Source: Elusimicrobiota bacterium
Lineage (GTDB): Bacteria > Elusimicrobiota > UBA8919
Assembly: GCA_016218625.1 (NCBI GenBank)
Contig: JACRDL010000009.1
Coordinates: forward strand, 1-53,246
Reading direction: 5' to 3'
Length of the DNA stretch: 53,246 nt
Shown here piece after piece: positions 5,335-50,878 of this stretch. How positions within the stretch are numbered: the stretch's first letter is position 1; every line of letters starts with the position of its first letter. The notes below the pieces were generated by a model, which was not told where the DNA came from, did not search any database, and saw nothing but the letters and a program-made list of their open reading frames with translations. Both the position numbers and the translations under genes were made by a program.

Positions 5335-5425
5335 ATCGGAATTTGAAAGGCGCCACAGAATTACACAGAAAAAAGCACAGAAATAACTTCTGTGAAATTC
5401 TGTGACATTCTGTGGTTTATCTTGA
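5335..5425. repeat. CACAGAA/TTCTGTG inverted tandem-repeat element, near-identical to 38377-38470
   Basis: atcggaattt.aaaggcgccacagaa..acacagaa..cacagaaataacttc.gtg.aattctgtga.attctgtgg..atcttga at both sites. Confidence 0.9.
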
Positions 5426-22469: not shown

Positions 22470-23228
22470 ATGATTATAGCGGTCTCCGGCAAAGGCGGAG
22501 TCGGAAAATCCACGATTTCGTCTTTGATTATAAAACAATTGGTTGAGAGTAAGAAATTCCCTGTTCTTGCGGTGGATGCCGACCCCAATAGTAATCTCGG
22601 ATATTATCTGGGTATTGATTGTCCCGCAGGAATAGCCGTTTCCGATTTGCGAGAGGATGAATTCAAAAAAAATCCGGCGGGAATTTCAAAAGTTGACTGG
22701 CTTAATATAAAAATGCAGGAGTGTATTTTTGAGACGGCCAAAGATTTTGATTTGCTCGTCATGGGGCGTCCCGAAGGTCCCGGTTGTTATTGCGCCGTCA
22801 ACAATCTTTTGAGGGATTTTTTGAAAAAAATCAGCCGGCAGTATCCGTTTGTCGTTATTGATAATGAAGCGGGTATGGAGCATCTCTCCCGTCGGACCAA
22901 TAATGAAATTGATGTGTTGTTTATAGTCGTCGAGCCGACAAATATAAGTTTTTTGGCTGCAGAAAATATAAAAAAAACAGCCCAACAACTGCCGATAAAA
23001 ATCAAAAAAAAATACATAGTTGTAAATAAATACCAGAACGAAAAAGTCAAAAACATTGAAGGTCTTGATATGATCGGTTATATTCGTTATAATAAAAATG
23101 TTTCCGACAATTTTGACCCTGTTAGAGATACCGTGTCACGGTGTGACATCTCTAACAGGGTTGATGCGGATAATTCCGAAATTAAGAATGATATTCAAAA
23201 GATTTTATTGAAATCGGGAATTTTATGA
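22470..23228 (+). CDS. cooC: CooC/AcsF-family nickel-insertion ATPase
   Basis: SGKGGVGKS, DADPN, GRPEGPGCYC, DNEAGMEHLSR. Confidence 0.85.
   Translation: MIIAVSGKGGVGKSTISSLIIKQLVESKKFPVLAVDADPNSNLGYYLGIDCPAGIAVSDLREDEFKKNPAGISKVDWLNIKMQECIFETAKDFDLLVMGRPEGPGCYCAVNNLLRDFLKKISRQYPFVVIDNEAGMEHLSRRTNNEIDVLFIVVEPTNISFLAAENIKKTAQQLPIKIKKKYIVVNKYQNEKVKNIEGLDMIGYIRYNKNVSDNFDPVRDTVSRCDISNRVDADNSEIKNDIQKILLKSGIL
23117..23164. mobile_element. Miniature palindromic insert, in frame in cooC
   Basis: ttga|ccctgttagaga..tctctaacaggg|ttga; 48 nt including one ttga. Confidence 0.8.
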
Positions 23229-23965
23229 GAAATATTTTTATCATTTTTTTATTGCTGATTTTGGCATTGACTGGCTGGTGGGCAAATAAAAACACCGATT
23301 ATCCGTATCCTGCTCCGGTGGATATTGTTACGGAAAAAACAAAGCCAATTGATTTTGTGGGATTTCTATTCGGAATGAGAAGAATAATTGCCGATGTTAT
23401 GTGGGTTCAGACATTACAGTATTATGGAGGCGGCGGTTGGGAAGATAAAGTCAGCGAGGAAAAATATCGGAAATACGAACATGACGAAAAAAGAAAAGGC
23501 GAATATGGAAGATATAAATATCTTCTGGCTATGTGCCGAAGATGCGTTCGCCTTGACCCGTATTTCAAATATGTTTATGCTTTCGGCGGCGCCTCGCTTG
23601 CTTGGAATCTGACCCGGTATGATGAGGGCTTGGAACTCTTAAATGAAGGAATAGAACATAACCCGCAGTTCTATCCGTTCCATTTGTATGCAGCCGCTAT
23701 TATCTATATGAGAGAGGGAAAAGCTGTGGATATGATGAACAAACTTGAACAGGCGGTAAAATATCCCGATTGTCCGTTTGAGGTTAAACTTATCCTTGGC
23801 AATATATATACCAAATACGGCAGGTATGAAGATGCTGCAAACATTTGGGTTGATATTTATTATACGGCGAAACTTGAAGTGAGATCAAAAGGGGCGAAAC
23901 AAAAACTGGAAAAACTTATTGCCGAAAAAAAGTTATCCGAAAAATTCCTGGAAAAAATAAAATAG
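23225..23965 (+). CDS. Membrane-anchored TPR-like hypothetical protein
   Basis: N-terminal TM segment; ADVMW..QYYG, LDPYF, helical repeats. Confidence 0.65.
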   Translation: MRNIFIIFLLLILALTGWWANKNTDYPYPAPVDIVTEKTKPIDFVGFLFGMRRIIADVMWVQTLQYYGGGGWEDKVSEEKYRKYEHDEKRKGEYGRYKYLLAMCRRCVRLDPYFKYVYAFGGASLAWNLTRYDEGLELLNEGIEHNPQFYPFHLYAAAIIYMREGKAVDMMNKLEQAVKYPDCPFEVKLILGNIYTKYGRYEDAANIWVDIYYTAKLEVRSKGAKQKLEKLIAEKKLSEKFLEKIK

Positions 23966-23993
23966 TTGACATTTTTAATTAAAATAGTAAAAT
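23966..23993 (+). promoter_or_regulatory. Sigma70 promoter for tRNA-Lys
   Basis: TTGACA-16-TAAAAT just upstream of the tRNA. Confidence 0.65.
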
Positions 23994-24003
23994 AAAAAAA
24001 CAA

Positions 24004-24076
24004 GGGCCCGTAGCTCAGCTGGTAGAGCACTTGACTTTTAATCAAGTGGTCGTGCGTTCGAATCGCACCGGGCTCA
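24004..24076 (+). tRNA. tRNA-Lys(TTT), CCA not encoded
   Basis: gggcccg/cgggctc acceptor stem, D arm gctcagctggtagagc, anticodon loop ctTTTaa, T loop gttcgaatc. Confidence 0.97.
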
Positions 24077-28562: not shown

Positions 28563-28630
28563 GGAACACAGAACAGACACAGAACAGTTCCGAGTCAGTT
28601 CTGTGTATAAGTTCCGAGTCGGTTCAGTGT
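28539..28630. repeat. ACACRGAAC/GTTCYGWGT inverted tandem-repeat element overlapping the ftsH stop
   Basis: gacacggaacagacacggaa..acacagaacagacacagaac / gttccgagtcagttctgtgt..gttccgagtcggttcagtgt. Confidence 0.8.
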
Positions 28631-38376: not shown

Positions 38377-38470
38377 ATCGGAATTTCAAAGGCGCCACAG
38401 AAAGACACAGAAAAAAACACAGAAATAACTTCAGTGTAATTCTGTGAAATTCTGTGGCTAATATCTTGAT
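38377..38470. repeat. CACAGAA/TTCTGTG element, copy 2
   Basis: Near-identical to 5335-5425. Confidence 0.9.
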
Positions 38471-38858: not shown

Positions 38859-38918
38859 TTAAAATCCATAAATTTTTGCTTGACTTTTATTATTTTTTTT
38901 ATATGATATTTACAGTTT

Positions 38919-38994
38919 CAGGATTAAGGATTAAGTCGCTTCGCTTTAAGAATTAAGTTTTTGCTTAATCCTTACAACTTATTACTTAATCCTG
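38919..38994 (-). repeat. GGATTAA/TTAATCC heptamer element, reverse orientation
   Basis: Close to the reverse complement of 47007-47090; contains gtcgcttcgc. Confidence 0.88.
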
Positions 38995-39011
38995 ACATTA
39001 ATGGGGGTTTT

Positions 39012-39600: not shown

Positions 39601-39732
39601 CAGGATTAAGGATTACTTTCAGGATTAAGAATTAAGTTATAAGGATTAAGAAAAGACAAAAAAAACTTAATCCTTAAAGCGAAGCGACTTAATCCTTACT
39701 ACTGTTCACTTACGACGTATCACTTAATCCTG
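39601..39732 (+). repeat. GGATTAA/TTAATCC heptamer element
   Basis: caggattaaggatta.. / cttaatccttaaagcgaagcgacttaatcc..cttaatcctg. Confidence 0.88.
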
Positions 39733-47006: not shown

Positions 47007-47090
47007 CAGAATTAAGTGATAAGTTGTAAGGATTAAGAAGAAACTTAATACTTAAAGGGAGCGAAGCGACCGACTTAATCCTTAATACTG
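47007..47090 (+). repeat. GGATTAA/TTAATCC heptamer element
   Basis: cagaattaagtgataagttgtaaggattaag..gcgaagcgac..cttaatccttaatactg. Confidence 0.88.
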
Positions 47091-49338: not shown

Positions 49339-49612
49339 AAATTTTTTTTGATAATGACACCAAATTTGTGTTATACTATTTTTGAGAAAATGGGATTGTT
49401 CACAATAACCTAATAATAAAAACAAGTGAACCGATTCAACTCCGTTGCAATGTTCTCGGACAATAAATACTTAAAATCAAGAATAATAAAGAGTAATGGA
49501 AATAGTGGCCGCACATCAGATAACAGGGGCATTGCGGTTTAGTTTCACTTCGTCCAAACTACCTGCAGCGAGTCAGTGGGGACTGGCTGAGTTTAGATAG
49601 GAAGGTCAAATT

Positions 49613-50878
49613 TTGATTGGTCCGAAAATCTACGAAAAAGTAATTGTTTTTTTATTATTCTGCAATATGGGGTGGGCAGAAATGGTTAATCCCATTAGAA
49701 ATCTCAAATCTAATGAGGAACGAGTTAATTCCAAAAAATATTTACATAATTCCGACGGTATGTCTAACGGGGTAAATATTCAATTTACTGTAAAAGTTCC
49801 AAGTTATACTGTCAAGGACGATTCTGTTTTTATATCAGGGAATATTCCTGAATTTGGTAATTGGGATCCCGGAAAAATCAAATTAGACAAGGCGGGTGAT
49901 TTTACTTATCAGAAAAAATTTTCTCTGCCGAAAGATATAAAAACAGAATTCAAATTCACCCGTGGAAACTGGGAAATGGTTGAGAAAGGAAAAGATGGGG
50001 AGGAATTGTCAAATAGAGAAATGACAATCGTGAAGGACGAAAAAATTGAATTCACCATTCTAAATTGGGCTGATAATATAAAAATTGAGAAGAAACATAC
50101 TTTAACGGGGAATATAAAATTTCACGAGAATTTTCATTCCAAAAAATTAAATAACAAAAGGAGTATTATCGTTTATCTTCCACCGGATTATGAAAAAAAT
50201 ATAAAAAAGATATACCCAGTTCTTTATATGCACGATGGCCAGAATATATTTGATTCTGCAACTTCTTTTACAGGTATTGAGTGGGCGGTTGATGAAACGG
50301 TTGAAAAACTGATTTCAGAGAGTAAAATTAAAGAGATTATCATTGTCGGGATTTACAATAATTCTGACAGAGTAAAAGAATATACCCCTTACCCTGATAA
50401 AAAACATGGCGGAGGTGATGCCGATAAATATGCTGATTTCATAATAAATGACTTAAAACCGTTTATTGACAAAACATACAGAACACTCCAAGACAGAAAC
50501 AATACCGCAATTATGGGTTCGTCCCTCGGCGGGATTGTATCACTTTATATTATATGGAAATACCCTGAAATATTCTCAATGAGCGGTGTTGTCTCCCCTG
50601 CTCTATGGTGGGCTGATTACAAGATTTTTGACGAGATAAAAAAATCACCGAAGAAAAAGATTAAGATATATTTTGATATGGGAACGAAAGAAGGAGATAC
50701 TATGGAGAGTTTCAATTCAGCAATTTCTGATGTAAGAAAACTCCATGATATTTTAATTAAGCAGGGCTTTGTTTTGGGAAAAGATTTGGAATATTTTGAG
50801 GATGAAGGTGCTGTTCACAACGAATCTGCTTGGGCAAAAAGAGTTCATAAACCACTCCTCTTCTTCTTCGGCAAGTAA
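49613..50878 (+). CDS. Exported CBM20-like plus alpha/beta-hydrolase (putative esterase)
   Basis: FISGN..GNW..EFKFTRG, VYLPP, YMHDGQN, GSSLGG, HNE..W. Confidence 0.85.
   Translation: MIGPKIYEKVIVFLLFCNMGWAEMVNPIRNLKSNEERVNSKKYLHNSDGMSNGVNIQFTVKVPSYTVKDDSVFISGNIPEFGNWDPGKIKLDKAGDFTYQKKFSLPKDIKTEFKFTRGNWEMVEKGKDGEELSNREMTIVKDEKIEFTILNWADNIKIEKKHTLTGNIKFHENFHSKKLNNKRSIIVYLPPDYEKNIKKIYPVLYMHDGQNIFDSATSFTGIEWAVDETVEKLISESKIKEIIIVGIYNNSDRVKEYTPYPDKKHGGGDADKYADFIINDLKPFIDKTYRTLQDRNNTAIMGSSLGGIVSLYIIWKYPEIFSMSGVVSPALWWADYKIFDEIKKSPKKKIKIYFDMGTKEGDTMESFNSAISDVRKLHDILIKQGFVLGKDLEYFEDEGAVHNESAWAKRVHKPLLFFFGK
49690..49776. mobile_element. Miniature CCC.TTAGA..TCTAACGGG insert, in frame in the esterase
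   Basis: ttaa|tcccattaga..tctaacgggg|taaa; 87 nt. Confidence 0.75.

Follow-up and report, generated by a model that had tools for sequence, protein, structure and literature searches.

Most described MITEs are larger than the element reported here and are found chiefly between genes, and the ends of many correspond to those of a known insertion sequence. In the literature on bacterial MITEs (Correia/NEMIS, ERIC, Coxiella QMITE, and the cyanobacterial elements), some in-frame fusions are described (PMC10969869, PMC5896051). A 2024 review presents Rickettsia palindromic elements (RPE) as palindromic repeats of ∼150 bp, described in Rickettsia, which sit in frame in many unrelated, intact genes and are read as extra peptide; about half of the copies are in genes, and the review still regards RPE as the most extreme instance of MITEs inserting in frame (PMC10969869). 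REPs, which go with RAYT/TIRYT, are described as 20–40-bp palindromes of high copy number with a GTAG/CGTC tag, some of them intragenic (PMC3733652, Di Nocera et al.). The family that we describe below is new, and it is of a kind already known (MITE/RPE-like). Our literature searches found no description of it; the tip 9-mers led in full-text literature, among the matches listed, to shRNA, primer, or vector papers, and searches for MITE/palindromic elements in Elusimicrobia, Omnitrophica, or Patescibacteria, or for in-frame MITEs, returned general reviews only.

The window, by which we mean the whole stretch of 53,246 nucleotides analyzed here, is contig C106 of a 1.81 Mb Elusimicrobiota MAG (124 contigs, 38% G+C); since this MAG is 86% complete and so divided, it may lack some repeats and insertion sequences. 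The ORF of interest (Table 1) matches CooC1 (PDB 3kje, E 1.2e-21) and carries the Pfam domains CbiA/AAA_31 of a CooC-type P-loop NTPase. The first-pass annotation had read a palindrome between two copies of TTGA in this gene, and the palindrome proves to be a 44-nt element with perfect inverted ends of 13–14 nt. The repeat finder reports arms of 14 nt at 23116-23129 and 23148-23161, 100% complementary with 18 nt between them. As single-stranded DNA, the 52 nt of the element and its flanks fold with −17.9 kcal/mol; shuffled versions average −4.99 (z −6.9), and 0/200 of them reach this energy. We rejected the element as an RNA family, as its sole Rfam match (PK-repBA, 22 bits) lies below the gathering score of 45. 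Logan contigs from one DNA run break at the cooC copy; none bridges the element and none joins its flanks without it, so that they speak neither for nor against empty alleles. No RNA run is listed with the locus.

Table 1. Positions in the window of the cooC copy, its host gene, and the second family member
Feature	Position	Strand	Remarks
cooC-type gene	22470..23228	+	ORF, 252 aa with insert; 756 nt compared
Left target copy TTGA	23113..23116	.	Single TTGA in the L003 and L005 empty sites
44-nt non-autonomous element CCCTGTTAGAGATACCGTGTCACGGTGTGACATCTCTAACAGGG	23117..23160	.	In-frame reading (D)PVRDTVSRCDISNR(V); contig C106; arms 13/13 complementary
Left terminal inverted repeat CCCTGTTAGAGAT	23117..23129	.	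Repeat finder
Interior, 18 nt	23130..23147	.	Small hairpin ACCGTG-T-CACGGT plus 5-nt tail; inner stem in MFE fold
Right terminal inverted repeat ATCTCTAACAGGG	23148..23160	.	Repeat finder
Right target copy TTGA	23161..23164	.	Sequence and empty sites
Second family member, degenerate	49690..49772	.	83 nt; flanks TTAA / TAAA; reads PIRNLKSNEERVNSKKYLHNSDGMSNG
Esterase ORF hosting the 83-nt copy	49601..50875	+	Pfam Esterase, CBM_20; insert in frame near N-terminus

Among 30 relatives searched, each of the 10 further genomes in the taxonomic family yielded a cooC gene. Eight of 11 cooC loci from relatives entered the alignment, and L007, L011, and L012 were removed by a start-motif filter. The 16 residues DPVRDTVSRCDISNRV are absent from 8/8 aligned CooC orthologues (5 genera), which is exactly the 16-aa gap that had been anticipated for CooC homologues, and it is found in the DNA as well as in the protein alignment. 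The three same-genus cooC genes are 708 nt long, 48 nt less than the 756 nt of the filled gene. In DNA, L003 has the empty site GACAATTTTGATGCGGAT; TTGA is present once in L003 and in L005 (..TTTTGATGC..), and one same-genus empty site reads ..TTTTGATGCG... The single TTGA in L003 implies that the filled cooC gained 44 nt and a second TTGA, a total of 48 nt or 16 codons, in agreement with the earlier claim that removal of 48 nt restores the frame. An AlphaFold2 model built on a 9-sequence alignment (mean pLDDT 75) has pLDDT <50 at residues 212–233, a stretch that includes the insert (residues 216–231) and sits between a strand (200–205) and a helix (236–249). The insert is modeled as an extra loop that follows the last strand and precedes the C-terminal helix, where the length of the chain differs among genera in the alignment even without the element. 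A second CooC paralogue (C41) has an element of the same subfamily at another position relative to the GY..YNKN motif; the homologues of this paralogue in the empty-site comparison are only 54–55% identical.

Further copies had been predicted, and they are numerous. The whole genome contains 57 matches to the exact 9-nt tips spaced ≤120 nt apart. A strict rule, with 13-nt arms that include the outer C/G and are complementary at ≥12 positions, yields 51 pairs, or 49 elements once 2 cross-pairs of nested copies are removed, whereas five shuffled genomes yield 0, 0, 0, 0, and 0. The elements span 26–92 nt in full length, and 32/49 are 44 nt long. CCCYGTTAGA tips are common to all family members; the interiors are unrelated between subfamilies, and each consists of a small GC hairpin plus a 5–7-nt tail and is found in both orientations. 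The proposal of a non-autonomous family with unrelated interiors is thus borne out by subfamilies that have the same tips and many copies. The insert with matching ends reported in an esterase is also real, though its tips (TCCCATTAGA / TCTAACGGGG) are degenerate; a same-genus orthologue of the esterase ORF, looked for to obtain an empty site, was not found. Five elements are nested within an A-type element, all of them at one CGTG; this 4-mer is duplicated around them and is present once in uninterrupted A-type copies. An identical 92-nt nested composite is found at C91 17521 (flanks TTGA/TTGA) and at C91 19142 (TTAA/TAAA), so the outer tips are what is moved; this composite, together with the tips common to subfamilies of unrelated interior, indicates that the tips suffice for mobility. 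The family thus has the attributes of MITEs: terminal inverted repeats, target duplication as judged against the empty site, short length, multiple copies, and no coding capacity.

The flanks of the copies define the target. Identical 4-nt flanks are found in 36/49 copies, and 36/36 are YNNR (T..A in 29 and C..G in 7); around the target in these 36 copies, position −1 is seldom C (5/36) and position +4 is never G. A symmetric YNNR target is what an enzyme of two-fold symmetry with a 4-nt staggered cut would be expected to use. Comparison with empty sites bears out a true duplication for CooC and DnaE, where TTGA is present once in the relatives, and for the nested copies, and the same element is found between differing matched 4-mers (TTGA/TTGA, TAAA/TAAA, TTTA/TTTA, and CAAG/CAAG). 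The simple duplication model does not predict unlike flanks, which we observe in 13/49 copies here and in 34/70 well-formed copies elsewhere among the matches listed. Both sides of such copies are nevertheless YNNR in 11/13 cases here and in 23/34 elsewhere, again among the matches listed, as compared with ∼6% by chance. TTCA (5′-TTCA-CCC) is one of the flanks in 7/13 of these copies here and in 14/34 elsewhere among the matches listed. For the two UvrB copies, CoaBC, and the TMEM260-like protein, comparison with the empty site identifies the single target 4-mer (TAAA or TTTA) in one flank, whereas a foreign TTCA takes the place of its second copy, and the net gain in these four copies is still 48 nt. 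NadA fits the pattern of TTCA as a foreign flank if its ancestral site is inferred, and TopA, with a 29-nt element, is ambiguous. Decay of the duplication was rejected as the source of TTCA because it does not account for the same change each time, and recombination between copies was excluded as the source of unlike flanks because the host genes are colinear with their orthologues. Metagenome contigs contain many tandem arrays whose units are parted by one identical 4-mer, with at least 131 tip-to-tip junctions in at least 122 contigs. Among the matches listed, the 4-nt junction spacers are TAAA/TTTA (51), TCAA/TTGA (35), TGAA/TTCA (18), and CAAG/CTTG (7); they match the ordinary target spectrum and thus lend no support to a fixed TTCA circle or tandem junction.

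We find 32/49 copies (65%) inside open frames ≥150 aa, which are a proxy for genes only. Such frames make up 86% of the genome, and coding DNA is therefore only mildly avoided. The tabulation of length modulo 3 that had been suggested separates the two settings: the element length plus 4 is divisible by 3 in 32/32 in-ORF copies, whereas 5 of the 17 copies outside long frames are not divisible, these being AT-rich 55–67-nt variants in short frames or none. The recognizable peptide scar is confirmed, and it varies less than had been claimed, with 30/32 in-ORF copies in one frame, x-P-V/I-R...S-N-R/G-V-x (the PVR frame), whichever way the interior is oriented. The other open frame, L-L-E...L-T-G, is used by 2/32, and the third frame through the element contains TAG and TAA. 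Because two of the three tip frames are open in both orientations, insertion should often spare the protein and add a hydrophilic loop, and the host proteins presumably still work. Insertion into the same genic 4-mers would be expected to distribute the 24 perfect-repeat copies as 10.4 PVR to 6.4 LLE to 7.2 stop. The excess of the PVR frame over this expectation would need either peptide selection or a wider target preference, and selection on the peptide may be the cause of the bias. Among the in-ORF copies, C19 28725, C22, C88, and C41 25980 are situated at the extreme N-terminus or ahead of the likely start.

By NCBIfam/Pfam, the hosts include the essential replication and repair proteins DnaE, DnaX, UvrB (two copies), MutS, and TopA, as well as YidC, TatD, NadA, CoaBC, QueH, an SNF transporter, and a TMEM260-like protein. 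In the comparison set (CooC, its paralogue, DnaE, DnaX with two nested elements, UvrB with two, CoaBC, NadA, TopA, and the TMEM260-like protein), 11/11 elements in 9 genes are absent from the aligned same-genus orthologues, and these 11 are, as judged from the alignments, probably recent insertions. The gap in the orthologues is 16 aa for 44-nt copies where the region is alignable and 11 aa for the 29-nt TopA copy; the DnaX linker is too divergent for an exact gap. In G009, which belongs to another genus, CoaBC carries at this site a different, 62-nt family member, and UvrB and NadA carry unrelated inserts at theirs, which indicates that some loops are struck repeatedly.

The family extends well beyond this genome. 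An exact 42-nt-core pattern matches 7/401 genomes of the phylum, and a reversed control pattern matches 0/401; the matches number 29 here, 4 in G009, 2 in G001, and 1 each in G005, G021, G068, and G176. Within the genus, the three other genomes have 2 (G001), 0 (G002), and 0 (G003). In a scan of GTDB with one genome per species, we found at least 98 loci. Seventy of the 98 matches listed have the outer C..G and arms that are ≥11/13 complementary, and 36 of these 70 have identical YNNR flanks. The element-bearing MAGs among the matches listed carry more than 8 phylum labels, which are labels of MAGs and include some chance matches: Omnitrophota, Planctomycetota, Nitrospirota, Elusimicrobiota, Cloacimonadota, WOR-3, Armatimonadota, and more, together with Patescibacteria labels (Paceibacterota, Saccharibacteria, Kerfeldbacteria, and others). 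Forty-six of the 98 listed are in open frames ≥150 aa within the 1.2 kb around them; the PVR frame is used by 26 of them and the other open frame by 20. Viral contigs gave 0 matches to the 42-nt-core pattern.

We consider it likely that the cooC palindrome is one copy of a MITE-like family with tips of ∼10–13 nt, CCCYGTTAGA...TCTAACRGGG, that is moved in trans. A transposase supplied in trans would recognize the tips, and the sequence between them would be free to vary. The enzyme would make a 4-nt staggered cut in a symmetric YNNR target (T..A or C..G) and join the tips to it, and repair of the stagger would leave 4 nt duplicated; the commonest, 44-nt form would in this way add 48 nt, or 16 codons, per insertion. 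A search for an autonomous element with these tips found no gene-enclosing tip pair 131–5000 nt apart in this 86% complete MAG or in the fetched loci. Multi-copy ORFs were rejected as the transposase, as they encode outer-membrane barrel, ORF6N, ERCC4, and receiver proteins instead, and no DUF559 was found in this genome.

A different reading of the same ends is that the elements are the trace of a prokaryotic piggyBac-like (IS1380-related) cut-and-paste reaction, in which the element would be excised through a hairpin with a 4-nt flank overhang and inserted at a staggered TNNA-type site. New copies might then keep one donor and one target flank, and an element that left a gene would do so seamlessly. 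We regard this as possible but unlikely. Tips of piggyBac start with CCC, and IS1380 makes 4–5-bp duplications. The family has ends of the IS1380/piggyBac type, in that its tips start with CCC and its duplicated target is a symmetric 4-mer, mostly T..A. Published accounts place piggyBac at TTAA with a 4-nt offset and excised ends that bear a 4-nt overhang from the donor flank (PMC7351741), and name IS1380 as its prokaryotic relative (PMC5718144). The four unlike-flank copies that pair one target 4-mer with a foreign TTCA and yet gain exactly 48 nt, NadA if its ancestral site is inferred, and the high proportion of unlike flanks that are YNNR on both sides all agree with donor carry-over. However, the same foreign TTCA recurs across subfamilies and phyla, which plain carry-over does not predict and which would fit only if TTCA-flanked copies are the usual donors. 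The piggyBac Pfam family PF13843 was unmatched in 5 element-bearing genomes, in a search that matched no control genome either. Genes of the IS1380 family were present in just 1/5 other element-bearing genomes of one search; NF033539 (IS1380 family) is present in the MAGs G000 (2 copies) and G009/G401 and was not found in the MAGs G001, G005, G021, G068, and G402-G405, which bear from 1 to 3 or more element copies. The IS1380-family copies at C94 and C82 here and the one in G009 have the ends CCTGAAAAATGCGGG, GGTATAAT.., and CCTGAATTTTGCA and 5-bp duplications; the C94 copy has the GGTATAAT.. ends, and the C82 and G009 ends have only CCTG in common with the element tips. With differing ends and 5-bp rather than 4-nt duplications, the copies of this genome were rejected as the partner.

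It seems to us improbable that the elements are REP/REPIN-like repeats which a tyrosine (HUH, Y1) transposase of the REP- or TIR-associated kind moves as single-stranded hairpins, with the apparent duplication arising from a chance likeness of the cleavage tetranucleotides at the two ends. Y1_Tnp genes are present in 11/11 genomes of the taxonomic family, with 4 in this genome, and REPs inside genes, often genes of replication or repair, are on record (PMC3733652), as the elements here are in DnaE, DnaX, UvrB, MutS, and TopA. Joining at a fixed tetranucleotide without duplication could also explain the one-sided TTCA. Against this, identical elements lie between varied matched 4-mers that the empty sites hold once, which argues for true duplication of a variable target and not a fixed, guide-specified site. 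The element is also without a GTAG tag, and 0/20 Y1 loci in the 11 genomes were found to be bracketed by element tips; the 8 Y1 genes whose flanks were examined among these loci are bracketed by GGGGACGG-type repeats. Far less probable still is the view that CooC had the 16 residues ancestrally, or as a functional peptide module under selection, and that the relatives have lost them. The occurrence of nearly the same peptide in many proteins, with one frame strongly preferred, can be read as selection, but 0/8 aligned orthologues from 5 genera have the residues, and they are encoded by a perfect palindrome with a duplicated target. The same DNA moreover recurs at non-coding sites and also where the other open frame is read, opposite orientations of the interior give differing peptides, and the segment has pLDDT <50 throughout.

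Movement of the family in trans by way of its tips is the reading that we carry forward. Frequent colonization of genes in frame, as in Rickettsia, occurs also in free-living groundwater bacteria and by a far smaller element. The family has very simple and strictly conserved ends and is present in many candidate phyla. The conserved tips offer a handle for finding the transposase. The family may be used as a marker of gene-annotation errors and assembly breaks in MAGs, and it offers a natural supply of loop insertions that would be tolerated in proteins. More speculatively, and with considerable doubt on our part, the elements could be the footprints of an undescribed piggyBac-like prokaryotic transposase (hairpin excision with a 4-nt flank overhang, 4-nt staggered YNNR target, seamless removal) in many mostly uncultivated phyla, with 48-nt in-frame loops that are removable and with TTCA as the flank of preferred donors. 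Were the flank pattern the product of such chemistry, bacteria would here give their first hint of transposition that is seamless and footprint-free.

Set beside the known systems, the family shares with piggyBac a symmetric 4-nt target that is duplicated by a 4-nt stagger, TTAA in the case of piggyBac as given in the account cited (PMC7351741), but its target is relaxed to YNNR and no such transposase is linked to the tips. Like REPs, the elements are short multi-copy palindromes, some of them in replication and repair genes; unlike REPs, they have GTTAGA / TCTAAC in their sequence and no GTAG/CGTC at the tips, they duplicate a variable target, and the Y1 genes examined are flanked by other repeats. 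They resemble bacterial MITEs in being short, non-coding, and multi-copy, with terminal inverted repeats and target duplication, and they differ from most MITEs in that 65% of copies are in long open frames and the parent element was not found in the genome. The analogy to RPE drawn in the first-pass annotation is upheld for in-frame, translated insertion into unrelated genes and does not extend to membership. Judged by the descriptions of RPE only, the present elements are three times shorter at 44 nt, their inverted tips are defined, they duplicate a 4-nt YNNR target, and members with the same tips occur in MAGs of many phyla. What they have in common with RPE-1 to RPE-10 is the insertion, in frame and free of stops, into unrelated genes, seen here for 32/49 copies in open frames ≥150 aa.

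At the cooC copy, the Logan contigs of the only run holding the locus break at the element (window 22995-23136), and their summed depth in that run is 88 over the element vs 6-9 alongside, as expected for a multi-copy repeat that fragments assemblies. Copies also occur side by side; five metagenome loci (L217, L218, L234, L258 and L270) carry two to four elements in tandem, with a single common 4-mer serving as spacer and as outer flanks, e.g., E-TTTA-E-TTTA-E, where E is the element. The shared spacer suggests that new copies inserted time and again at the duplicated target, or else that the unit slipped. We note that the family includes AT-rich variants of 62-66 nt, which lie in non-coding DNA of the window's genome (G000) at TTGACA-like boxes. 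In the C16 and C23 variants, the duplicated TTGA and the element tip together give TTGACC-N17-TATAAT, an arrangement resembling a promoter.

Other in-frame inserts, 20-40 aa long and including runs of the KSKVRSPKSEV..-type and HGGHGEHGEE-type, occur in genes of the relatives, either at different loops or at those also hit here; in-frame insertions are thus common in this taxonomic family of genomes. In a genome of another genus (G009, L165), coaBC has a different, 62-nt member of the element family at the very same TAAA site, either through independent re-insertion or because an old insertion was lost elsewhere. A repeat finder also recovered two further short inverted-repeat families in the window, with arms of the CACAGAA-type and the GGATTAAG-type, which are unrelated to the cooC-type element.

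Locations of variants, inserts, inverted repeats and transposase genes (G002 and G003, same genus as G000)
Feature	Location	Remark
AT-rich 62-66-nt variants	G000 C16 158-221; C23 5605-5670; C11 7924; C62 4723; C74 4942	non-coding
Other in-frame inserts	L132 (G002); L137 (G003); L160 (G009); L134 (G009)	DnaE; UvrB; NadA; UvrB
CACAGAA-type and GGATTAAG-type inverted repeats	window 5353-5415, 28566-28606, 38394-38458; 38918-38995, 39620-39732, 47022-47089	repeat finder
ERCC4-domain gene split by IS1380-family element	G000 C82 about 22512-24056 (L112)	
Y1 (HUH) transposase loci	L181 (G000 C9), L175, L184, L177, L176, L189, L180	

The IS1380-family copy on C82 has the TIR CCTGAAAAATGCGGGAAA and a 5-bp duplication, ATAAT, and each half of the ERCC4-domain gene that it splits has its counterpart in an uninterrupted paralogue on C97. 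All 11 genomes of the taxonomic family contain Y1 (HUH) transposase genes, about 230 aa in length, and those genes whose flanks were examined have inverted repeats containing GGGGACGG on both sides. Together, these genes and repeats look like the TIRtron/TIRYT units described by Di Nocera et al. (PMC3733652).
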